DNA of 63,880 nucleotides, the filler included, from Collodictyon triciliatum (lineage: Eukaryota): the NCBI GenBank assembly GCA_043381765.1. It is 7 parts of 7 records of this genome, joined end to end, with 100 filler letters (N's around TTAATTAATTAA, not from the genome) between each part and the next. Parts side by side here need not be neighbours in the genome. Positions count along the whole stretch, not along the records: positions 18,532 to 28,744 come from JBHJMP010002754.1; 6 more parts are not named here. One strand, given 5' to 3'. Positions 10,401-62,652 of this stretch are shown piece after piece (within the stretch, counting starts at the first letter, position 1; every line of letters starts with the position of its first letter). The notes under the pieces were generated by a model. It was not told the DNA's origin. It worked only from the letters and a program-made list of their open reading frames with translations, and ran no database searches. The translations under genes were made by a program, and so were the position numbers.

Positions 10401-13400
10401 TTTGATTATTTTTAATAAAATCTTGCCACTGTGACGAGCATCTCTGGTATATCTGTATCTCCATGTCACTGATCTGGTTATGAGCCCCTGTGACACCCGC
10501 ATAGTGTAAGAATCCAACCTTTGTGCTATGACCAATCTGAGCAGAAAACGGGTCCTTTCCAACACCAGATTGACCATGCATATCATAATCAACCAAAGTG
10601 TTACGATTGCTAGTATAAATAAAATCACCATCGCCATTGTAATAACCGTCTTCATCTTCATCCTCATCTTCATCTTGCATATCATCATTATCAATGAATG
10701 ACTTGTAGTATGACTGAAACGTCTTTATTCCAATCTTTACACTGATGTATTTCGAAAAATGGCGAAACTGTTGAAAAGTCAATGGAATATTGGAGAAGGT
10801 TTGAAAAAGATTTGCAAAGTTATCTCGAATATCTCTTTCGTTCATGACTCTACCATCAAGTACAAACAGATACACAGAGTATGCATTGTCTATATTTCTT
10901 GACAGATAAGTCGATATGATTTGAATGAACGGTCTTATAATAAAGAAATCAAGCAGCATTACATGTGAAGTCTCCTTGTCCAGAAAGCGCACTACATCTT
11001 TGCATGATTCGGTCATGGAGTTTGTTTTTGAATAAGGGGCATAGAACCAAACCCTGTCATTAGAACAGTACATGTTTCTTTGAGACGAGACGCTGTTTGA
11101 TCTTTTGTAAGTGGAGATTTCGGTTGCTCGGCCAGGCATTCCGCTGACATAGTGAACCAAAAAGCACAAATGTCTGACAAACTCGTCATAGATCTTTAGG
11201 TATTGCTGGATAGTGGATATGTTCCATACGACCTTATGATTTTGTATGTCATAGACATACTTGCTTTTCAATTGATTTGTGGACAGAATGCTTCTTATAA
11301 TGAAACCATTGTAGATATTTTGTAGTCTGTTATCCTTCACATGCATAGAGTATCCCATTGATCTCTGACTGAGGTCATCCACAACATCCTGTATTTTGAT
11401 ATCTGGCGGTCTTTGTGCCAAGAGCAGAGCATCCATTAAGCCTTGCAGAGCAGACATCATGTTACGATAACACAGAGGAAAGCTATCGAAATCCACCTGA
11501 ATGCCTTTTAGCGATATCTGCTTGTTTGGGATTGTTTCGATGATGATAGGGAGCCTCTTCAATCTCGACGCATAGTTGAGAGCATCCGAAGTGATTACAA
11601 AGATGGACGTAGAAAACCTCAAAGTCTCTCCCTGGATCATTGGAAGCATTTCTTCAAACTTCTCGAGCCCGACAGACGGCTCCATCTCACAGTAGAGATA
11701 AAAGACCATTTTCATCAAATAAATCAGCTTGGATGCTATTCTGGAGACGTTCTCTGGCGGCATCAAAGAATAGTCTTTCTGGATACAGCTTAGTCTCAGA
11801 TATAGAGTGAGAAAGCAGATTCCTCTGGTCGATGTGGTGACCTTCTCTGTGACCAAAAGAAACAACAGACGGACCAGATTCAGGTTGGAGTAATCATATA
11901 TCAAAGCTCTGGCAGCGTTCAGAAACTCAGAGTTTGGGAAAAAGTAATAGTGGATAGGCTGCAGGCAAAAGTTTACGGAAAAAAAAACCACTTTGGCAAA
12001 GACGCATGCGTAGTCTCTCTTTGCGTTTCTTGAATACAAGAAGGTAAAGTTTCTTCTTTTCTTGAGAGTGTATCCCAATCTCTGTTTAAACAAAGGATCC
12101 CAGTGCTTTACATCTTCTATCGACTTATTGAAAAAATCAAGTATGTCCTTAGCTCTAGACTCCAATTCCTGAGGACATTTGAAGTAAGTGTAGTACTTGA
12201 AGACTTGAAAGTTTTTGATCTCATCAGGGTCCACAAACCAGCCTGACTTTGAATAGAACATGTTTCTTGTTCTAAAATCTTCGTTTGGCATCGTGCTTGA
12301 ATTCAATACTTGCATGGATGCATCAACTATCAACTCGAGATTGTGATCGTCAGGCTGTATGAGGCTCTCTTGTTGGGATTGTTCTTGTTGATGTTGATGC
12401 TGATTCCCTTCATGTTGATGTTGATGTTGATGTAGATGTAGATGTTGATTTGGATGTTGATTGGATATCAAAGATTGTATTCTAAAGTAAGACTTTGATT
12501 TGCCAATGTCCCCTGACTGTATCAAACAGACTTGATATGACTCTGTGTCATGGATATTTTTTGAATGTTTCTGCATCCTTGACAGCGTTTTACAGCACCA
12601 ATAGCATAGTTCGCATTGGTATCCATTGTGTATATCGAGATACTTTAGAGGCTGATGTGAAATATTCAAATCCTTATGAAAAGGTAGTATTTCAAGATTC
12701 AAAGATATGATTTTCCAATCAGATAAGGGCATGTATGTGTTATGAACTCTTTTTTGGTGGCGAGGAAAGTTTTGAGAAACAATACCTTTGCATTGAGAGC
12801 AATAGATCCACTTGTTTTCCATATCATATCCCATGTGATACTTATGCAATGTTTGTAAAACAATATCCATAGAAATATTACCGATATCCAAAGGATTATT
12901 GTCTGTCTCATGGATTGTCTGTGAATTGTGATCATTTGGGGCCTGGGCAACAGGATTTGCACTCACAAGGTTTGCAACCATAGGCTGAGCACCCATAGGC
13001 TGAGCACCCATAGGCTGAGCTTCTATATGCTCGGCTTCCATAGTATTTATTATAGAGGGATTGCTCTGTGTTTGGTTGTCGTGTTCTAAGAAACAAACCT
13101 TGTGTTTGAAAACAAATCTTGGTGTTCTCCCATCCATATTGTGTACTGGGCATCTGAACTTGCCACCTTCATTCCTTTCTATGTATAAGAAAGAGCCGTC
13201 TGCTGTTCTAAGCCTCACTTTTTGCTGGTGCGTTACTCTTAAGTGGTACTTATAGTCCAGTGCTGAGTCGAACGTGAGGCTGCATTCAAGGCACTCCATA
13301 GCTTATAAAATAAAATAAAAAATAAAAAAAGTTAAAACAGTGTCTACTATAAACATGAACGAGTCAAATATAATAACTTTACAGGTATCAAAATAACATG

Positions 13401-14247: not shown

Positions 14248-14347
14248 NNNNNNNNNNNNNNNNNNNNNNNNNNNNNNNNNNNNNNNNNNNNTTAATTAAT
14301 TAANNNNNNNNNNNNNNNNNNNNNNNNNNNNNNNNNNNNNNNNNNNN
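14248..14347. other. Artificial contig spacer N44-TTAATTAATTAA-N44 (also at 18432-18531, 28745-28844, 39049-39148, 51463-51562, 61765-61864)
   Basis: Same 100-bp format six times; the 12-mer gives stops in all six frames; genes abutting the spacers do not continue across them. Confidence 0.95.
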
Positions 14348-17939: not shown

Positions 17940-19050
17940 TTCGCTCTCTGCCTATTTCAAGCAACTGGTCAATAAAGCACATGAAGCGGTAGACTTGGAC
18001 CGTTTCCACTGGCCCCGGTCGTCAAACAGGATGACGACTGCTTCGAAGATGAGCTTTGGAGTAGTCTCGAGTATTTCTGATGCTTCTCTGTTGAAGATCA
18101 AAGGCTGTGCTTCTGTTGTGGTATTTTGATCGCAGGATCATGAAGATGGATTTTCGGGGGTGAATTAGACATGATGCTTTGCAATCGTCATACGTAAAAA
18201 ATAATATATAATTGTACTTTACAATGAATACAAAAAGTACGCAACTATATTGCATTTTACTGTGTTTATGCTATTTTCCATATGTGAATATTCTCATTGA
18301 ATGTTTTGATTCCTTTCAATATATATTTTTTTCTTTCGCCTGTTGCAAACTCAAACCACACCGAAACACGTCAAAAAACACATCACCCGTTCGCGCCTGT
18401 ACCCTGCGAGAAAAAAGAAAAAAAAAAAAGANNNNNNNNNNNNNNNNNNNNNNNNNNNNNNNNNNNNNNNNNNNNTTAATTAATTAANNNNNNNNNNNNN
18501 NNNNNNNNNNNNNNNNNNNNNNNNNNNNNNNGAGGGAGAGGGAGAGGGAGAGGGAGAGGGAGAGGGAGAGAGAGAGTGAGAGAGAGAGAGTAGGGAAGAA
18601 AGAGAGAGAAGGCGATCGCCCCGAACGGCCTGTTAAGTCGCCAAGGGAGCAACAGCACCAGTGGCCTCCTGCACACGGCGTTTCTGCTTTGTGAGGCCCT
18701 GTTTATTCAGCACCGTACTATTGCCAATAATCAAATCAAGTCTATCGTTCATAATCAAAGCAGCCAGGCGTTATGGCCCGCAGCGAGGCAGCAACCAAGT
18801 GGTAAAGCAAAGGCAGACAGGCAGGCGGGCAGGCATGTGATCAAGGAAGGAAGGAAGGAAGGAAGGAAGGAAGGAAGGAAGGAAGGAAGGAAGGAAGGAA
18901 GTGGAACATAAAGAGGAATATGTATATGTATGTGTGCGGCACTGCACAAACAAACAAATGGACAGACCAAATGGCCTCAACGAGCAGCGAAAAAGAAAAA
19001 AAGAAAAAAAAAAGAGAGAGAGGGAGAGAGAGAGGGAGGAAGCGCGCTGC

Positions 19051-21450
19051 TCAGGCTTTTGGTGCGACCATCTGCAGAGACGGCCTCGTCAGAGTGGTTA
19101 TCAGGAGCGGAGACACGTGGGCCAGTGCCTGAATCAGACGAAGCCCGCGCCGCCGCTGCTCCTCCTCGCTCGCCACCCGCGTGCACGACCGCAGCTCCGT
19201 CTCTGTGATCCCCACAATCTGCACGAACCGGCGAGCCTTGCCTGCGGGCGTTGCGGGGCTCCCTGTTTTGATTTGACCGCCTATTTAAAATAAAAAAAAC
19301 AATCAGAGGAATATAAGGAAACGAAAAGAGATGAGACCTGGATGGATGCCCCAAATCAAACTCAGAGATGAATCCATATATATATTTACGGCACACCGCA
19401 GGACAATTAAGGACTGTGCATCCATACCTGGCAGCAGCGGGTCGTCCGCAAAGACAATCGCAGAGACCAGAGACGGCGGCGCAGCAGGTTCCGTGCAGAG
19501 GGGCCCGTCGGCGTCGACGCACAGCCCGGTATATACCAAACCACAGGCCGGATTGTGGCTGTGGCTGTGGCTGTGGCTGTGGCTGTGGCTGTGGCTGCGA
19601 TGGTGCGCTGTGTAGATGCAGCGGGCGATGTTCTGCATCATCTGGACGGGCCATGCAGGGGGGCCTATTGGCTGCGATTGTGTTTGCGATTGCGATTGCG
19701 GCTGCGGTTGCGGTTGCGGTTGCTGCTGCGGTTGTGGCTGCGGTTGTGGCTGTGCACGTGGAGACGGCAGGGGCGTCTGGTCAGTGGCACTGAATGCGTC
19801 ACTGGCTGTGGCTGTGGCTGTGGCTGCGGCTGTGGCAGGCGGGAGGGCGCTGTTGAAGACAATGGCTGGGTTGCCGTGCTTCATGACGCCACGCTTCCAC
19901 CGCACGCCGCACTTGTTGCACAGGGTCCCGCGACCCATCGGCCCCTGTCGCCACAGCACCGTCTCCTCCGCCCTGCAGTGGCTGCACACCTTTTGCTGTC
20001 CGCCCTCCCTCCTATCCTCCGCCTCTGCTGCCGCCACGCCTGCCATTGGCGCGACGGTTGGTGTTGCCTCGCTCTTTGGTGCGTCGATGTCCCCGGCTGG
20101 GTGCTCCATCCCGAGGCGGAATGTCAGCTCGAAGCCCAGTCCAGCTGGTGTTATTGTGTGTTTGCATGGGTGCGTGGGTGCATTTCGGAGACGGATGGAT
20201 AGATGGATGTATATGGTATCTTCACGTTGGCTTTTTGTGTGTTTCTATTTGGTGGTGCAGTTGCGTACCGTCTGCGTCGTCGCTGTGCAGGCGGCTCAGT
20301 CCGTACGAGATGTAGGCCCAGTGTGGCTGCGGATCCGGCTGGTAGTAGACAGAGACGCCGTCCAGTGGGTCGGAGCCTCCACTGGCGTATTTGACCAATG
20401 TTGTGCAGTGCTGATCGGGAGCTCGTCCATAGACCCCTGGGATGGGACGAAAGCCCACAGTGGTTAGTACAAAAAAAAAAATGTATGAATGAAAAAAGAA
20501 AGCTAGACAAGAGGGAAAAGGATTTGACTCAATCTTGGAACTTTTAGTAGTTTGATTGCTGTTGTGCGATATGCCTTGTATAGTTTTGTTATGTGGTGAA
20601 TGGCAAGTACGTAGTTTGATGGGTGTCGGCTGGTATTGAATTTTGATTGTGTAGCATATAAATTATACTCTTTATTCTCAAATGGTTTTTATACTCTTTA
20701 TTCTCAATCGAATAAGAAAGGATCCAGCTAAATTAATTACATAAGGAAAATGTTTTATTTTTGTAATATATATATATATAGAAGCTAACGAGTAAGCATA
20801 TTAGTAACTATTAAATACATTATTTTTTCCTCTTCCGTTTTTTTCTTTATTTCGTTGATTTTGTATATTTGTTCTCTCTTCATGTCTATCGAAAATAAAC
20901 TACCTTGCAAAATCTTTAGGATTGCACGGCCGCCCGGCGAAGTGAGCTCAGTAGCAGCCTTGCAAATCTCCTCCTCTTCGGACTCATCCACTCCGCGCGA
21001 AGAGTCGTCTCCCTGCGTCTCTTTGCCTGGCTCAGACTCGTCAATCGCATCGTGACATTCTCCCTTCACAAGGTGATGCGCCTTCCCCCAGTCTCTCTCC
21101 TTCTCTATGAAATCAAGCTTCCTCTTTGGCGCGCCTTTCCGAAGCGCCGGGCTTACCCCGTCCATCGATTTGCCCACACCAAGGGGATGCGAATTTCTTT
21201 GATCCGAGGGCACGTGATTCAGGAGAGAATTGGCCGATTCGTAGAAGGAATCTGTAGCCCCTTTGTTTTCCTCCTCTAGGTTGTGGAGTTCCGACGTCGA
21301 ATCATGGTCGATGTGCGGCTGGGCATCTTTCGGACTCTCCATCCCTGCCTCGCCCGGGTGGCTTTGGTCGTAGAGGAAGTCCAGCACATATCGGAGAGCA
21401 GTCTCGTTGATGTCTTCGGCGGTGGAGCTCCATCCGCTGCTGCCTTCCAT
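19051..21450 (-). CDS. SUFU (Suppressor-of-fused)-domain protein with an internal GATA zinc finger; 4 exons 21450-20904, 20436-20269, 20144-19428, 19280-19051 (553 aa)
   Basis: All three introns are GT-AG, phase 1, and keep the frame. SUFU motifs in order: SPGGRAI, VKYASGGSDPLDGVSVY, HWAYISYGLSRL, GLGFELTFRL, PPAWPVQMMQNIAR, DDPLL, TPAGKARRFVQIVGITETEL, PLLITTLTRPSL. GATA finger CSHC-X18-CNKCGVRWKR at 19909-19986. Confidence 0.85.
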
Positions 21451-23069
21451 CAGGAATGCGGGGAGAATGCGGGGAGAATGCGATTCTGCATGCGGTGGAG
21501 AAAGACATCGTGGCTGAGCAAGGGAGAAAACAAAGACAAGAGGGAACGAACGTGGAGCGCTCCGTTGTTTAAATACACAGAGAAAGGCAGACAAGAGAAT
21601 GGGTGAGAGAGAAAGGCGTAGGAAAAATCGCTGATGGAGGGGACTTTTCTCGCGTTGCGAATGTGGGTAATGAGAGAAGCTAAGCTCTCATATCCGCCGA
21701 AAATAAGCCGAAAAGACAAAGAGAGAGAGAAGAGTAGGAAAAGACACACATCTTTATGTGGAGTTTTTGTTAAAAAGAAAAATGGGAATGAAAGAAAAGC
21801 GGGGTGGCGTAAGGTCGTGGCTCGTCCCTTCGGGTGTAAGGAGGTTAGTGAGAGGACAAAAAGAAGAAAAGAGTACCGTATCGATGGATTGTGTGTATTG
21901 ATGTGTGATTCTTTCTCGTGGTGTGAATCTCTTTGTAGTTGAGAGGATAATTTTTATTAAAAAAAAAAAAAAAAAAAAGGCTGACTGTGCATTATGTTTG
22001 TTCGGTATGTAAGCCTGTCCTTCAGCTCATGTTTCATTCAAATTGACAAAATAGACATTGAACGAAAGAGCTGCAGGATTCTTGCACCCGAGAGAAGCGC
22101 AAAGGAAAGCCACGTAAGACGTGTTCGTGACGCATTTGTGTTAGATTGTCGCACAAGTTATAATGGCAATGCGTCGCGATTCTGTCAAACACCCCACCTA
22201 TCTTTTATGCAGCAGGCTCTTTTATCTTCCCAGCTATCAAATACTTATGTTTCGTGAAACACAGCCGACGGAAGAACCCCGAGTACTCAATCAGACCCTC
22301 AACGCGAGTTTTTTATCTACCGAGTCTATAAGTACGTGCCTCTGCTTCATATTGGAAACAAAAAGTAAATCAAAAGGTCCGAGTTTCCGTGGCAATATAT
22401 CTAGTTGGAAAGGAAACGAAAATGTTTGCAGAAAGGCCAATGCGCTATGTGGTTTGTGCTTGTGATTGCGATGTGATTGGCAGGGAAACTCCGAAGCTCC
22501 TTGTCTGTTTGCGTCCAGATGGAAAAAAAAAAGCAAAAATGGAAATGAAACGCACCGAAGAAAATCAATTTATTGGCGCTGAAAAAAAAGTGTGAATTTA
22601 AAGCGAATTTTTAGTATTGGGAATTATGAATTTCACAAACCAATTAGCTTTACGTTTATCTAATGAAACAAAACACGTTTATTTCGGCAAAGACGATTGT
22701 GCGGAAGTTCATACCTTTCTGGAATTTCATTTACATTTTTGTTTTTATTATTTGAATTTTATGGGAATATACCTAATAAAGACGTCCTTATACGGCAACT
22801 TGAATGGATTTATATGGTCATTGGTGATTCCTCTCTGGGACATAGTAACGTCTTTTCCTCCATAAAGTAACCCTTTTTACCGCATTCGACCAAAATCGCA
22901 AGGAGATTGAATTGGGGTTACGGTCAATCCGCTGCAGCATTGTGTTTCCTATTATATACATAAGTATATTATATATAATAATTATATATAATGTATGAAT
23001 AATAATCTTTATAATGACTTATAATACTATTATATTATATTTTCCAAATAATATAATTACCGTATTATA

Positions 23070-23504
23070 TCAACCGTATATCCCCAGACAAATGTGGGGC
23101 TTTGCTTACCATTTCATCGAAGCAATCTTGGTATTATTTCAAGACGAACTCGATATCTCCAACAGAGAACTATGGATAGGTGCGCGCGTAGTCCATGCAT
23201 CAACGACATCTCCAAAATGCACCATATACCATAGCTGGGATGACTCTATCGAACACACATATGTGAAGTGCTCTCTGACTCAAAAAGTGACAGAGTCTAC
23301 CCACAAGATGCTCTCTGAGCTTGATTATGCTCCCAACCAACTCGGCGCGTCTGACATACTGTTTGGCCCACAATACCAAATGACCCACGACTCTAGAATA
23401 CTTTGGAAACTCACAAGGATACATATGGTGTGGTCCTTATGGAGTTAGGGTGCATTCTCTCGCTCTAACACATCGACCGAACGAGTGAAAAAAAAAAAAA
23501 AAAA
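23070..23504 (+). mobile_element. Non-LTR retrotransposon 3' fragment (zf-RVT-like C-terminal Zn domain), degenerate, followed by an A-tract
   Basis: ELWIGARV..KCTIYHSWDDSIEHTYVKC (decayed CX2C..HX4C); 23149-23466 is highly similar to 57385-57703; A-run at about 23488-23504. Confidence 0.65.
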
Positions 23505-23936
23505 GAATTACATTGGTGTTATGAAAAGTTCACATTAAAAAAATGTCAAACAGGAGATATTAATTCTTTTTTTTTTTTCCCAACAGGAGATATTAATTAT
23601 TTTTGTGGGCATTGTCAGCAATTTCTGTGTCAGCCGAAGGTAGTTCCAAACAGTAGGGTGTATGCAAACGAAGCTCACGAATTAAAGGCAGAATAATCTA
23701 AACGGGCACTTCATACAAAATAAAGGAAATAGAAAGGATTCTGGCCGCACTCTTTGCATTACAAATGGGTCGAACCAAGTAACTCGGCTTTGGTTTAACC
23801 CCTTCCTTCTCTTGAATCGAGTAAAGGGAAAAAAAAAGTTCGGCTTTGTTTTATACAGGGCACACAGTTTCTAGTATACCTTCCTATTTTTCCATGGTTA
23901 ACAGAAAGTAAAAGAATTATGAAAAGGCAAATACAA

Positions 23937-38084: not shown

Positions 38085-38693
38085 TCAAATTGTTAAATTT
38101 TTTTTTTTGTGACTTTGTCCTTTTATTGGTATGTTTATGCTCATGTATTGTGTCAGAAAAAGTGTACTTACCAGGACTTCATACAACTGCAGTTTTTGGA
38201 GGGCGTCAGCAAAGCTCAGTGTCATTCCTTGGTATTCATCACAATTCGTGTTGTTCCACACAGAAAGTGTTGAGATACCGTATGGCGCCCTCTTTATGTT
38301 AATTATCCCTCCTCTCTCGATGTGAAGCTCCTTCAAACTCGTAAGTGCTCTGATTTGTGGTGGAAGCTCCTCGATCTGCATGCACCGTTTTCAGCGACTT
38401 TCTAATTTCAAGATAAAAAAAACAAACGGGATAAAAACATACCGGGTTGTCAAATACACTAAGTACATTGAGATCAGTCAAACACGATATTTGTTGTGGT
38501 AGTGATGACATCTGATTGCAACTAACACCGAGCTCTGTCAAACCAGTCAAGCTCGAAATTTCTGCTGGTAGTGATGACAGCTGATTGTAATAAACACTAA
38601 GCAATATGATACCAGTCAAACAAGATATTTGTGGAGGAAGCGATGACAACTGATTTCTATCAAGTTCCAATCTTTTCAGACTAGACAACAAGT
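32648..38693 (-). CDS. Roco protein: LRR-ROC GTPase-COR-TKL kinase, two putative SAM-like domains, C-terminal CaaX (CLLI); 5' end disrupted
   Basis: LRR exons 38690-36550. ROC: LLGEGNAGKTTL, ATDGI, IWDFGGQEEFQVTHPFFL, IAGTHQD. COR: ALKFLHDLGSVVWY..IIFLDPLFL. Kinase: AKGAYGRVY, VVK, HEDLKADN, DFG, GTANWQAPE. In-phase splices join COR to kinase (about 34590/34491) and kinase to the last exon 32854-32648. Confidence 0.88.
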
Positions 38694-39048
38694 AAAAGCC
38701 CCGCAAAAGAATACACCCGCCAAGCAGACAAGCAGCAACGGGGTCAAGGAAGCCAAGGCCAGGCAACAACGGAGTCCGCAAGACTCACAACAGATACGCG
38801 CATACAGTGACAGCGACGATGACATGGAAGGAAATCTCGGTTCCTCTTCAGAATCCTCGCACTCGAGCCCTCCACCGCCAACACCGGACAAGCCGCACAT
38901 CGCAAGACCCAAGAGCAGCGCATTTCCAAACCCCGAAAGAAATCACCCCTTAAACTACCCATTCAGACTGACGTGAATATGGTTAACATAGGAGGCCTCA
39001 AGGCAGTCTTCGTTACTTATCCGAAAGGATACTCCAAAGCGAAGGCAA
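38694..39048 (+). mobile_element. Foreign segment (possible retroelement ORF fragment) abutting the first visible Roco LRR exon
   Basis: LRR phase (LLSSLKRLEL) stops abruptly at about 38693; the adjacent DNA is C/A-rich and largely open on the opposite strand; no diagnostic motif. Confidence 0.3.
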
Positions 39049-39288
39049 NNNNNNNNNNNNNNNNNNNNNNNNNNNNNNNNNNNNNNNNNNNNTTAATTAA
39101 TTAANNNNNNNNNNNNNNNNNNNNNNNNNNNNNNNNNNNNNNNNNNNNTTCTCTTTCTCTTTCTCTTTCTCTTTCTCTTTCTCTTTCTCTTTCTCTTTCT
39201 CTTTCTCTTTCTCTTTCTCTTTCTCTTTCTCTTTCTCTTTCTCTTTCCAAGAGCACCGAGACCTTTGCCACATCTGCACATGCTGTAG

Positions 39289-49692: not shown

Positions 49693-49765
49693 CGCCCACC
49701 GTGGGGCTCGAACCCACGACCGTGAGGTTAAGAGCCTCACGCTCTACCGACTGAGCTAGACGGGC
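49693..49765 (-). tRNA. tRNA-Lys (anticodon CTT)
   Basis: GCCCGTCTAGCTCAGTCGGTAGAGCGTGAGGCTCTTAACCTCACGGTCGTGGGTTCGAGCCCCACGGTGGGCG; 73 nt, complete cloverleaf, A and B boxes. Confidence 0.97.
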
Positions 49766-51200: not shown

Positions 51201-51562
51201 ATCATTATTTAAAAACAGATTGAAAGGATGAATAAGAAACCCTTTTTTTTAAAAAAAAAAATGCTTGTTACAGGATAAAGAGTTTTAAGGGTCTATGAGA
51301 TTAACGATAAATATCTCTGTTTTTGTTTTTGTTTTTGTTTCTGTTTCTGTTTCTGTTTTGGTTTCTATTTCTATTTCTATTTCTATTTCTATTTCTATTT
51401 CTATTTCTATTTCTATTTCTATTTCTATTTCTATTTCTATTTCTATTTCTATTTCTATTTCTNNNNNNNNNNNNNNNNNNNNNNNNNNNNNNNNNNNNNN
51501 NNNNNNTTAATTAATTAANNNNNNNNNNNNNNNNNNNNNNNNNNNNNNNNNNNNNNNNNNNN

Positions 51563-57900: not shown

Positions 57901-58919
57901 GGCCGCTCACCTGACCAACTTGCTTACACTGATTTCTTTCCGGTGCTAGTCTCTTCGCAGTAGCGTTTTCCCTTACTCGCGTTTGCTCTCTCCCACACGC
58001 ACCCATCTTGCCCCTTTGTATGGCGTAACCTCGCTGCTTTTTGAATTGAATAACATGTGATCAAATCTGGATAGTAAAATTGATAGTAATTTTAGTTATC
58101 ATTAGATACATTTTGATTAATATAATACAAAAATTAATAATAATAATATAGAAATGTATGTATGAAAATTGGGACATTGTATAGAAATTCTGCAGAGGGT
58201 ATGAGACAAACACAAGAAAAATGTGAGGAAGGTACAAAGCGAGAAATCTAGGGGAATTCCGTTGTTTCCTTGTGATTTCGTGATTCAGAAAACTTGCGAA
58301 GCGGATAGCAAGCCATTTGTGGAAACAGTTCCGACGAATTTCCAGGATAAACGGATATCAAGCTGAACGCACACACGGAACCTGGTGACCAGTCCAGAAG
58401 CGGAAATTGCCAGGAGCTGAAGGGAGGAAGGTGTTCACGGAAGCGGCAAGACGCCTTAGCCCCTTCTGAGAAATTTCCGGAGCGAATCACACACCAACGC
58501 ACAAGCACAAACACCTAACGCATTTCCCACAACGCGTTCATTCAGTAGCTTGTCGATATCAGGCATCCACTAAACGGAACCGCCTCTAGATCAGACTACC
58601 GAAAGCCAACCAGAGGCAACTCATAAACCGAGGGGCAAAGCCACCCCAGGCAGCCCAGCACAAGAAGCAAGGCGAATTCCTGCCGCAGAAGGCGAAGCCC
58701 AGCAGACGAGCAGCCAAGGACTGACCCCACACCCACAGACGCGACCACCGCACACAGCCAGGGAGGCAACCCCCTCAACAGCACCCACACAGAGAGACCC
58801 GCGCCCGCATCGATGGACTCCGGACTGGATCGCCTGCCGACGATCCGCGTGAATCTGCCGAGCATCGGTGGGCAACGAAGCCAACGAACCACAGACGTTT
58901 AGACGTACCACAGACTAAC

Positions 58920-60924
58920 ATGCTCACGCAACCAGCCACAGAAGCGCCAACGCCAGCACGACGCGTGGAAGTGGAAGTGGAAGCGGAAGCGGTGGCGTCT
59001 GCCCTGGGGAGACTGGGAGTGGCAGAGGCGGGGACGGGAGGGGCGACGCCGGGGGACGGCTGCGCAGAGGCGGGGGACGTGGATGCGCGCGATCGCAGCG
59101 GGGCGACACTGCTGATGCTGGCGGCGCGGAGCGGGAGCGTGTCGGAGGCGGCGGGGCTGCTGGAGCGGGGGGCGGATGCTGCGGCACGGGACAGCAGCGC
59201 GCGCACGGCGTTCCACGAGGCGGCGGGGGGCGGGCACGCGGGGGTGCTGCAGCTGCTCCTGCCGCGCGCCCCGCAGGCCGTGTGGGATGCGCCCGATGCG
59301 GATGGCGACACGCCCCTGGTCGATGCCGTCGTCGCCGAGGCCTGGGATGCCGCCGCCCTCCTCCTGCGCCACGGCGCCCGCCTGACCCCGCCTGCCCGCG
59401 GCGCCGCCGCCCCCTGGGACACCCTGCCGCCCGCCTGGAGGGCCCGCGTCCATGCCGAGTAAGGCGCCTGCCCACACTCCACACTCCACACTCTGCACTC
59501 TGCACCTGCCCACCAGCGCTAACCGCACCCCCCATCCGCAGATTCGGCGGCGTGCGCACCGATCTCCCGCCGCTGCCCGAGCCCTCTGCGGACCGCGTGC
59601 CTGCCGTGCACCTGCCGCCGCCCGAGGCTGCCGCGCCGTCTGCCGCGCCCGACGCGCTGTGGCGCCCGCCGCCGAGCCCGCTGCACACGCGCCTGTCCGC
59701 GGCCGGCCCGCTGCGCATCGTGGGGACGCAGCACGACGTGGCGCCGCCGTTTGTGGTGGAGTGCGAGGGCCCGCACCCCCTGCCGCCGGCCGCGCTCGTG
59801 GTGGTCGGGACGCTGCTGGACGCCTCGCTGCGGCCGCTGCCCGCCTCCGAGCCCCCTGCGGCTGCGCCCGTCCTGCTCTCCGGCAACGTGGAGCGCGTCG
59901 GCCACCACCGCGCCGTCTTCCGCCGCATGCGCTTCACCCCCGCCGCAGACACGCGCGGCCACGTCCACTACCTGCAGTTCTTCTGCTACGAGCACTACGG
60001 CACCCCCGACCAGCGCCTCGTCGGCTTCTCCAACCGCCTCCCCATCGTCGTCGTCCACACCCTCGACGCCGCCCGCACCCCCCACGCCGACCCCCTCGTC
60101 GCACGCCTCCTCATGGCAAAGGACCTCCCCGTGCGCCTTCCTTCCCTCCATCTACGCGCATTCATGCCTTATTCGTCCAGCCACTCATCGCCACCCCCGC
60201 CACATCCAGGACCTCCCCTGGCAGCACAGGTTTCCCTGGAAGGTCCTCGCCGCTCCGCTGCCCGCCCACTTCGCCCAGCGCGCCGGGGCTGCCCGCACGC
60301 TGCTCCCCCGTGATCTCCTCTACCTTCGAGGCCGCGTGGCGCATTTGATCGGTGGGTGCTGCCTTCTCCACATTAGGCACCGTATCCCCTTCTCTCTTTC
60401 TCTTTTTCTCTCTCGGCACAAAAGAAGCAACCAGTCACCCGGCCTGACCACCCCACCCCCCTGCAGACTCGGACGGTCGGCTCACGCTGCTTGCGTTCCA
60501 GGAGCACTGCCTTGGGTGGCTGCATGGGGCCGCTGAGCTCCTTCAGCACGACCCGGTGATCCGTGGGATGTGGGACACCGGCCTGATTCATGGCTTCATC
60601 GCGCGCACACAGGCGGAGGAGCTCCTGCGCACAGTTGAGCGGCACACCATGTGCATCCGCTTCTCAGACTCTGACAACGGTGTCCTCACCGTGGGCTTTG
60701 TGCCCCCGTCTTCCTCTTCATCCTCCCAATCAACTCACGCGAGTGCGGCTCCGCCCGTTGCCTGGGCAAAGATTTCTCCGGAATCTCTTCGTGCCGAGCG
60801 CCTCGTCGACATTCTCTTGAAGAGCAAAATCCCTCGAATCGTCGATGCAGTCGGTCAGACTCTTGTCTCTGCTGTTGTCCTCCGCGAGGCTGAGGCTGCA
60901 CCCTATGCATCCGTCCTCCACTGA
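58920..60924 (+). CDS. Ankyrin-repeat + STAT-like (DNA-binding/linker/SH2) protein; exons 58920-59458, 59542-60130, 60210-60351, 60467-60924 (575 aa)
   Basis: Three ANK repeats (DRSGATLLMLAA, DSSARTAFHEAA, DADGDTPLVDAV); beta-rich central domain; STAT linker FPWKVLA..HFAQR..RTLLPRDLLYL; SH2 MWDTGLIHGFIARTQAEELL..TMCIRFSDSDNGVLTVGFV; C-terminal PY; all junctions GT-AG and in frame. Confidence 0.85.
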
Positions 60925-61764: not shown

Positions 61765-62652
61765 NNNNNNNNNNNNNNNNNNNNNNNNNNNNNNNNNNNN
61801 NNNNNNNNTTAATTAATTAANNNNNNNNNNNNNNNNNNNNNNNNNNNNNNNNNNNNNNNNNNNNGAAAAGTAAAGATAACACGTAAGTGGCCATAGGAAA
61901 GTTATGTTTCACCGACTGCGAGTCTTCAGTGGTTGAGTCCTTATCAGGCGAAGATTGATAAAGAGAAGAGACAACAAAGGACAGCCTCACCAATGTTCGA
62001 CATGTTATTTCCTGTGATGATCCGTTGGCTTCCTTATTGCTTTTCTTGATGCTCAGTCACGTCTCTGTTATATTTCTGTCTGAAACCGTTTGGTGCCGCA
62101 ATACAAACCTACGTGATACATTGCCACAGATACGCTCTTAATCAACCATAAAAAAAAAAAGCTACACAGACTCTCGTTTATGTTCGGTAGTAAAGATTAT
62201 TTGGTGGCAAAAGATGGTAAACTCGGGTGCGATCGCTTCATCATCTTTGTGGACATGTTTATCTGATTGCATAATGCTCTTCAATCACCCCATTTTCTTT
62301 CGAACTGATCCTCGACAAGCTGCATGCGTTTAGGAGAGTTCCTGGGTCGACGATCGCTCGTGTTCATATTTGTGCGTCTTTGTGGTTGAGTTTGTCTTGC
62401 GTCAAGTGCATTACGTTCTCAGATCCAAAGGCGTTTCGTTGCGTTCGTCTTTTGCGTTGTGGGGTGCTCGGAAAATTTTGAATTTTTGAATTTTTTAATA
62501 TTTTAAATTATATTTGGATTGCTTAGAATGGTATGTAAACTCGTGCTTTTACTGTGCGGACATAGCCAGCCCGCTTCACATAATCTCTAATTCGATACTT
62601 TATGGGTATATATCGATATCATAAGTCATTTATAAGTCAGCTATAAGTTATT

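Follow-up and report, generated by a model that had tools for sequence, protein, structure and literature searches.

A GATA-type zinc finger nested in the predicted SUFU domain of a gene from the protist Collodictyon triciliatum

Research on SUFU has dealt almost solely with its restraint of Gli in animal Hedgehog signalling and with its role as a tumour suppressor. In human SUFU, the His of the Gli motif SYGHL is held in a pocket formed by Tyr147 and Asp159, and mutation of either abolishes binding, as described in PMC3852661, which also indicates that human SUFU itself accommodates a long disordered loop. According to PMC4233246, animal Sufu is found in the nucleus at Gli target promoters, where it recruits p66beta (GATAD2B) and HDAC1. 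The wider SuFu superfamily is characterized in PMC3113570 and PMC3482391 as a versatile protein-binding scaffold, best known outside animals for its immunity proteins against nuclease and other toxins. Here we describe a gene of a different composition, referred to as the SUFU-GATA gene, in a stretch of 63,880 nucleotides (nt) from genome assembly GCA_043381765.1 of Collodictyon triciliatum (the window), and compare it to a protein of the same design from Rigifila ramosa.

We consider it very likely that this is one real gene, whose product has a eukaryote-type SUFU N-terminal domain with an intact plant/protist-type GATA finger nested in an expanded surface loop. The gene lies entirely within one contig of the window (18532..28744, JBHJMP010002754.1), with its stop codon approximately 520 nt from the contig end. 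On the minus strand, four exons join into 1662 nt, comprising 553 codons and a TGA with no internal stops. The three introns (467, 124 and 147 nt) are all of the GT..AG type and every junction is in phase 1. The parts of the gene, in the order of transcription, are as follows.

20904..21450, minus strand: exon 1, 547 nt, with the ATG at 21450-21448 and 182 codons plus 1 nt; no Pfam family
20437..20903, minus strand: intron 1, 467 nt, GTAGTT...CCCAG, 30% G+C
20269..20436, minus strand: exon 2, 168 nt, matching positions 1-33 of the Pfam SUFU profile and animal SUFU chains
20145..20268, minus strand: intron 2, 124 nt, GTACGC...ACCAG, 46% G+C
19428..20144, minus strand: exon 3, 717 nt, open throughout, with the GFELTFRL strand, the 150-residue insert carrying the GATA finger and the next SUFU segment
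19281..19427, minus strand: intron 3, 147 nt, GTATGG...AATAG, 37% G+C
19051..19280, minus strand: exon 4, 230 nt, with the TGA at 19053-19051; matching positions 124-149 of the Pfam SUFU profile (expectation value, E, 0.054) and collinear with residues 245-296 of the Rigifila protein

The lengths of introns 1 and 2 are not divisible by three and in-frame read-through of intron 3 leads to a stop. As the frame 5' of exon 2 has no Met, an upstream exon, exon 1, is required for the start of translation, and its ATG is the earliest in-frame ATG of its open frame. The exon 1 product is an acidic, low-complexity N-terminal region that contains a basic patch with KRK. The exons have a G+C content of 56-65% (0.69 at third codon positions) versus 30-46% in the introns, and a G+C-rich island at 18600-21600 (46-66%) in otherwise A+T-rich surroundings coincides with the span of the gene. 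With about 520 nt left between the stop codon and the contig end, the 3' end of the model should be seen as provisional. An upstream open reading frame (ORF) at 21302-21508 on the minus strand, with an out-of-frame ATG at 21508 and 68 codons, overlaps the SUFU-GATA start codon; it could be regulatory, or it could lie 5' of the true transcription start.

Searches of Pfam and of solved structures were run exon by exon, or piece by piece, with unspliced translations. The exon 2 translation matched positions 1-33 of the Pfam SUFU profile (PF05076) with 26.3 bits, reaching the gathering cut-off of 25, and residues 156-181 of exon 3 matched positions 61-84 with an E of 0.013. The SUFU pieces of exons 2, 3 and 4 were collinear, at positions 1-33, 61-84 and 124-149 of the 172 in the profile, and the remaining stretches of the profile were reached only via alignment to the Rigifila protein, whose own match covers positions 56-172. 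Among solved structures, nine of the 15 matches to exon 2 at E<=10 were animal SUFU chains, from Drosophila and human, with E values of 7.7e-10 to 7.5e-6; the other six had E>=1.2. The top solved-structure match of the 83-residue piece that follows the insert was human SUFU (1m1l, E 0.0088). No bacterial Sufu-like chain was present in the solved-structure match lists of exon 2, the post-insert piece, exon 4 or the finger. At the level of sequence, these matches supported the SUFU part being akin to animal SUFU and not to a bacterial immunity protein. Superfamily motifs have been tabulated as GxS, E, E and DxxR (PMC3482391), and by our own assignment of the motif positions the first three are kept in the window protein, as GLS, the E of FELTF and an E of TETEL. 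The protein ends just past ...TRPS, which is the end of the N-terminal domain, and there was no G+C-rich, exon-like island below 18600 before the contig end at 18532.

In human SUFU, the strand matching GFELTFRL is followed by eight residues and then by PPTWP, the start of a helix that includes Met141 (PMC3852661). In the window protein, 150 residues lie between ...FELTFRL and PPAWP..., and the SUFU segment after them in exon 3 reads PPAWP...NIAR...GPLC...SAIVF. The insert is made up of a 42-residue Ala/Pro-rich linker, a 34-residue finger and a 74-residue linker, the second linker consisting mostly of in-frame hexanucleotide repeats (Ala-Thr and Pro-Gln). The features within exon 3 are as follows.

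19663..20112, minus strand: insert, exon-3 residues 11-160, comprising linker 1, GATA finger and linker 2
19885..19986, minus strand: GATA-type zinc finger, CX2C-X18-CX2C plus 8 residues (...WKRGV), matched by Pfam, the GATA18 chain and the Rigifila finger
19803-19836, minus strand: hexanucleotide repeat, Ala-Thr, in frame in exon 3
19673-19752, minus strand: hexanucleotide repeat, Pro-Gln, in frame in exon 3
19554-19597, minus strand: hexanucleotide repeat, His-Ser, 7.3 copies, in frame and within the SUFU domain, with no such run in Rigifila

The zinc-binding Cys residues have the spacing C53-x2-C56-x18-C75-x2-C78 in the exon-3 protein (19986-19909). Pfam GATA (PF00320) matched exon-3 residues 53-84 with 43.6 bits against a cut-off of 26.8 (E 2.3e-11). 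The top solved-structure match of the finger was the Arabidopsis GATA18 chain (8j48, E 5.4e-7), followed by the DNA-binding fingers of chicken and human GATA-1/3. The finger aligned without gaps to those of Arabidopsis GATA18 and chicken GATA-1, with which it shares the T-x-LWR and LCNxCG stretches. We conclude that the finger is carried, as predicted from the sequence, on two disordered linkers between the GFELTFRL strand and the PPAWP helix. The lengths of the three exon-3 microsatellites probably vary between strains.

A preliminary description of this DNA had proposed four in-phase exons, which are borne out by the 553-codon frame and its phase 1 GT-AG introns. It had put the inserted residues at about 140, where we count 150 versus 8 in human SUFU, and the intact CX2C-X18-CX2C GATA finger that it placed in the SUFU loop is confirmed by the Pfam GATA match inside exon 3. 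The sequences flanking the insert were expected to score as SUFU, and the pieces from exons 2-4 match PF05076 in profile order. The full SUFU N-terminal-type domain that it described is an N-terminal domain only: pieces of this domain were recovered by Pfam and structure matches, and no C-terminal domain was found, with the contig end nearby. The one-component regulator, or the decoy or sensor, that it put forward are candidate roles.

To identify related proteins, we scanned 1.84 billion representative proteins with exon 3 using HMMER, which gave 1774 matches at E<=0.001; the results below concern the best 150 of the 1774, which were listed. Most of the 150 were multi-finger GATA proteins, and only one, P0033, also matched the SUFU pieces of the window protein convincingly (post-insert piece, E 3e-6; exon 2, E 0.02). 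This protein is EP00004_P023969 of EukProt, an ORF of a Trinity transcript from Rigifila ramosa, of the clade CRuMs, and is the sole member of its cluster. Pfam identified GATA at its residues 100-131 (E 2.6e-13) and SUFU at residues 172-288 (profile 56-172, 53.3 bits, E 4e-14). Its parts are ordered ...LELSFRL, 57 residues, the finger, 45 residues, and PPLWP.... Aligned with the spliced window protein, it is collinear, and its finger occupies the same SUFU loop. By segment, the identity of the two was 74% in the finger (25/34), 51% in the SUFU part before the insert, 38% in the helix after it, 30% in the remaining SUFU domain and 20-35% in the linkers; the SUFU parts are thus 30-51% identical across about 150 aligned positions. 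The finger being the best-conserved segment indicated that selection has been strongest there. Since the Rigifila sequence derives from assembled messenger RNA (mRNA), the mature message of that organism includes the finger, and the same nesting in two independent sequences speaks against a chimeric assembly. The alignment of the Rigifila protein with human SUFU (chain 145-291, E 1.2e-9) starts at the loop and extends some 30 residues beyond the N-terminal domain, after which the protein has a further 120 or so residues assigned to no family; judged from this alignment, it is an animal-like, probably two-domain SUFU. The architecture, which the preliminary description had suggested seeking in other protists, is therefore present in Rigifila ramosa in the same loop, and the window gene and this protein together establish that, as suggested, SUFU is linked to a finger of the transcription-factor type outside animals and Hedgehog signalling.

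From the 150 matches listed, 277 fingers were extracted, 237 of which have the X18 loop, and the two closest to that of the window protein, each 25/34 identical, were those of the Rigifila protein and of P0071, a 654-residue EukProt protein from Diphylleia rotans (CRuMs); the nearest kin of the window finger in this set were ordinary GATA-factor fingers. The finger of P0071 is at residues 510-543 and the protein has no other recognisable domain. We had considered P0071 as a third SUFU-GATA protein, and rejected it as SUFU parts were absent by BLASTP, profile comparison and Pfam, the finger alone being common to the two. P0153 was likewise rejected: it matched the post-insert piece with E 0.0071, but Pfam identified only GATA in it and we took the match to be one of low complexity. 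The similarity of the fingers suggests that the window finger derived from a lineage-specific GATA subfamily and that the source organism of the window is related to CRuMs; the insert may stem from the family that P0071 represents.

Other searches for proteins of this design were negative. None of the 30 other matched proteins scanned with Pfam contained a SUFU domain. Word-index searches of longer proteins (with the whole of exon 3, with exon 2 and with exon-3 residues 1-100) found no homologue, which is weak evidence as low-complexity words crowd the index, and ESM Atlas, queried with exon 3 and the Rigifila protein, returned GATA clusters only (best score 0.86) or nothing usable. Four tblastn matches to the SUFU parts in metagenomes, with E values of 0.39-0.81 over 12-30 residues, were rejected as noise. 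PMC3113570 and PMC3482391, which survey SuFu fusions, give other immunity domains among the partners. We found no description of a SUFU-GATA protein in the literature, although the supplementary lists of SuFu architectures in those two papers could mention one.

With regard to function, we propose that the finger would bring the protein to GATA-like sites on nuclear DNA, where the SUFU module, much as in its other settings, would serve as a protein-binding adaptor, holding or recruiting either a transcription factor or a co-repressor as its partner. The outcome would be a DNA-tethered adaptor or co-repressor, a single chain uniting roles that in animals are split between SUFU and its DNA-binding partner Gli. 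The proposal draws indirect support from the finger having kept the stretches of DNA-binding GATA fingers and being the most conserved segment, and, by analogy, from the scaffold role described for the SuFu superfamily, the nuclear action of animal Sufu with p66beta and HDAC1, and the long disordered loop of human SUFU. We offer this mechanism tentatively and rate its prospects at somewhat below even; for nested architecture and mechanism taken together, we consider the chances of being right and wrong to be about balanced.

A number of observations weigh against these interpretations. Exon 4 alone matched no SUFU chain among the solved structures, and it gave a weak Pfam match (E 0.054). By our motif assignment, DxxR reads TLTR, with the Asp replaced by Thr. 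Beyond the N-terminal domain Pfam gave no match, and a tblastn search with residues 289-441 of the Rigifila protein yielded nothing credible in the window; the absence of the SUFU C-terminal domain is provisional, as the contig ends some 520 nt after the stop codon. The chain numbering of human SUFU in our alignment is native +20, which is consistent with Tyr147, Asp159 and His164, and on this numbering the Tyr147 position is Cys in the window protein (direct alignment to human SUFU) and the Asp159 position is Leu (aligned via the Rigifila protein), while the Rigifila protein has His and Thr at these positions. The replacement of the Gli-pocket residues, together with no C-terminal domain having been found, makes a Gli-type clamp unlikely. 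The window protein probably clamps no Gli-type SYGHL motif: it belongs to the SUFU domain family, but its residues predict that it does not act as an animal-type Gli clamp. Its SUFU module could be a degenerate scaffold. AlphaFold2 modelling of the Rigifila protein from a two-row alignment gave a mean predicted local distance difference test score (pLDDT) of 38 and a predicted template modelling score (pTM) of 0.21, with just the finger at 60-73, so that the SUFU fold is a prediction from sequence. The design is also rare, being found in one of the 150 matches listed, and a metagenome scan, in which 220 stretches gave 80 loci with a related finger, identified SUFU parts in none of the 80. In addition, the stretch after the window finger (...WKRGVMKHGNPAIVF) is just mildly basic, and the gene model was predicted from genomic DNA alone.

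Some GATA-type fingers are protein-binding modules, and the finger of the same window protein might be of this kind, as a dock for a partner or as a gate beside the SUFU binding surface. We consider this unlikely, although several points favour it: the finger is flanked by long flexible linkers within the SUFU domain and is not terminal, the tail after it is the mildly basic one just mentioned, and animal Sufu binds p66beta/GATAD2B, which is named for a GATA-type finger (PMC4233246). A finger turned to protein binding would, however, have to be reconciled with a Pfam GATA score far over the cut-off, a gap-free alignment to the DNA-binding fingers of GATA18 and GATA-1, and nearest kin, among the 277 fingers from the 150 matches listed, that are ordinary GATA-factor fingers. 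A relic, whether decaying or neutral, seems to us rather improbable; the gene would then encode a truncated SUFU whose SUFU-type function is gone, in effect just another GATA factor whose finger is all that counts. The SUFU parts continue to match the SUFU profile and have the identity to Rigifila noted above over about 150 positions, and the four-exon frame is intact, despite the loss of Tyr147, Asp159 and the Asp of DxxR, the failure to find a C-terminal domain, and the three in-frame hexanucleotide tracts of exon 3, with the His-Ser one inside the SUFU domain, all of which would suit a relic.

The gene model could also be an artefact, with the finger spliced out or belonging to another transcript, or with the locus made up of two genes. 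The model's origin in genomic DNA alone leaves room for this, as do the 40 in-frame GT..AG pairs that span the finger within exon 3 and the window's own protein not having been found in the protein collections searched. Nevertheless, exon 3 is one 717-nt open frame with a uniform G+C content of 65% (third-position G+C of 0.63-0.77 in the segments that cover it), compared with 30-46% in the real introns, and the candidate internal donors GTCGCG, GTGGCG, GTGTGC and GTGCAG are G+C-rich in contrast to the real donors GTAGTT, GTACGC and GTATGG. As the same nesting occurs in assembled mRNA of Rigifila ramosa, with the finger best conserved, we regard an artefact as quite improbable. An origin in conflict systems, in which an immunity or decoy protein of the SuFu type found in bacterial polymorphic toxin systems was fused to a finger, is suggested by non-animal SuFu proteins being best known as toxin immunity proteins (PMC3113570, PMC3482391). 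This appears very improbable, given that the gene has spliceosomal introns, that its SUFU part matched animal chains and no bacterial Sufu-like chain, and that the Rigifila protein aligned with human SUFU past the N-terminal domain. None of the nine long neighbouring ORFs scanned contained a toxin family (they had helicase, ROCO-kinase, leucine-rich repeat (LRR), ankyrin or no family), although neighbours across contig joins mean little.

If the preferred reading of a nested, DNA-tethered SUFU is correct, the predicted DNA-binding-type finger in the eukaryote-type SUFU of two protists would point to a transcription-linked role of SUFU before and outside Hedgehog signalling. One protein with one finger would then offer a simple system for studying the job of the SUFU module on chromatin. 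The locus also illustrates cleanly how one entire domain can be nested within a loop of another by means of microsatellite-coded linkers, and exon-by-exon annotation tends to fragment genes with such nested domains. We further speculate, while holding it improbable, that in a common ancestor of CRuMs and the animal lineage SUFU would already have been a chromatin-bound, sequence-specific DNA-binding regulator. Were this so, the fingerless SUFU of animals, reaching DNA only via Gli, would reflect a later division of labour, and the protist SUFU-GATA proteins would show, in living organisms, what SUFU did before Hedgehog.

The window as a whole is composed of contigs strung together, with joins of 44 N, 12 bases and 44 N. 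The 12 bases are TTAATTAATTAA in the two joins that were read, and TTAATTAATTAA is a stop in all six frames. Because the window is a chain of contigs, neighbours across the joins may not be truly adjacent. The contig ends were observed to be simple repeats (poly-A, GA).

14248-14347, 18432-18531, 28745-28844, 39049-39148, 51463-51562 and 61765-61864: joins (filler), six N-runs of the 44 N, 12 bases, 44 N form
18432..18531, no strand: N44-TTAATTAATTAA-N44 linker that bounds the contig carrying the SUFU-GATA gene

Several other features of the window were noted. At 7567-13302 on the minus strand, an unbroken, A+T-rich frame of 1911 codons has DEAD and Helicase_C matches (E 4e-12 and 4.5e-19), together with termini rich in Cys/His and repeats of Gln-His; it has the appearance of a large helicase gene lacking introns, perhaps of mobile-element origin. 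Pieces of a ROCO-type gene, namely LRR, Roc GTPase with COR-A, and protein kinase, were found in successive open frames at 32894-38784 (minus strand). The region at 58000-60600 has a G+C content of about 63%, a composition unlike the rest of the window, and long overlapping frames on both strands, one of which has ankyrin repeats (E 4e-12). A transfer RNA gene at 49693-49765 on the minus strand (RF00005, 65.5 bits) was the sole Rfam match in the window at the gathering threshold.

The window gene can be compared to several systems described to date. The bacterial Imm-SuFu proteins reported by Zhang et al. (2011, 2012) are of the same superfamily and, as described in PMC3113570 and PMC3482391, often have an N-terminal-type domain alone and are often fused to other domains; the window gene, in contrast, is eukaryotic, has introns, is nearer to animal SUFU and has no toxin family in the nine neighbouring ORFs scanned. 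Plant/protist-type GATA factors, such as Arabidopsis GATA18 (8j48), have the same CX2CX18CX2C spacing and conserved residues, but their fingers are free-standing, one or several per protein, while that of the window protein is nested in SUFU. The Diphylleia rotans protein P0071 has a finger of nearly the same subtype as the window protein, with the unusual signature TVLWRQGP...GVRWKRG in common, without SUFU.

Animal SUFU (human 1m1l/4km8; Drosophila 6lph/4kma) has a homologous N-terminal domain, with the strand FELTFRL and the helix PPxWP...AR in common with the window protein, and itself acts in the nucleus and with transcription factors as partners (PMC4233246), and has a long disordered loop as well (PMC3852661). 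The window protein differs from it in having about 150 residues with a GATA finger in place of an 8-residue loop and an extra N-terminal region of 182 residues assigned to no family, in its C-terminal domain not being found in the window, and in its pocket for the His of Gli SYGHL not being conserved. The Rigifila protein is unlike that of the window in having about 150 residues past the N-terminal domain, in keeping DxxR as DMNR, in having no His-Ser run, and in having no N-terminal region, its true 5' end probably being missing. Nonetheless, like the window protein, it has the SUFU strand, a linker, the GATA finger, a second linker and the PPxWP helix, in that order.

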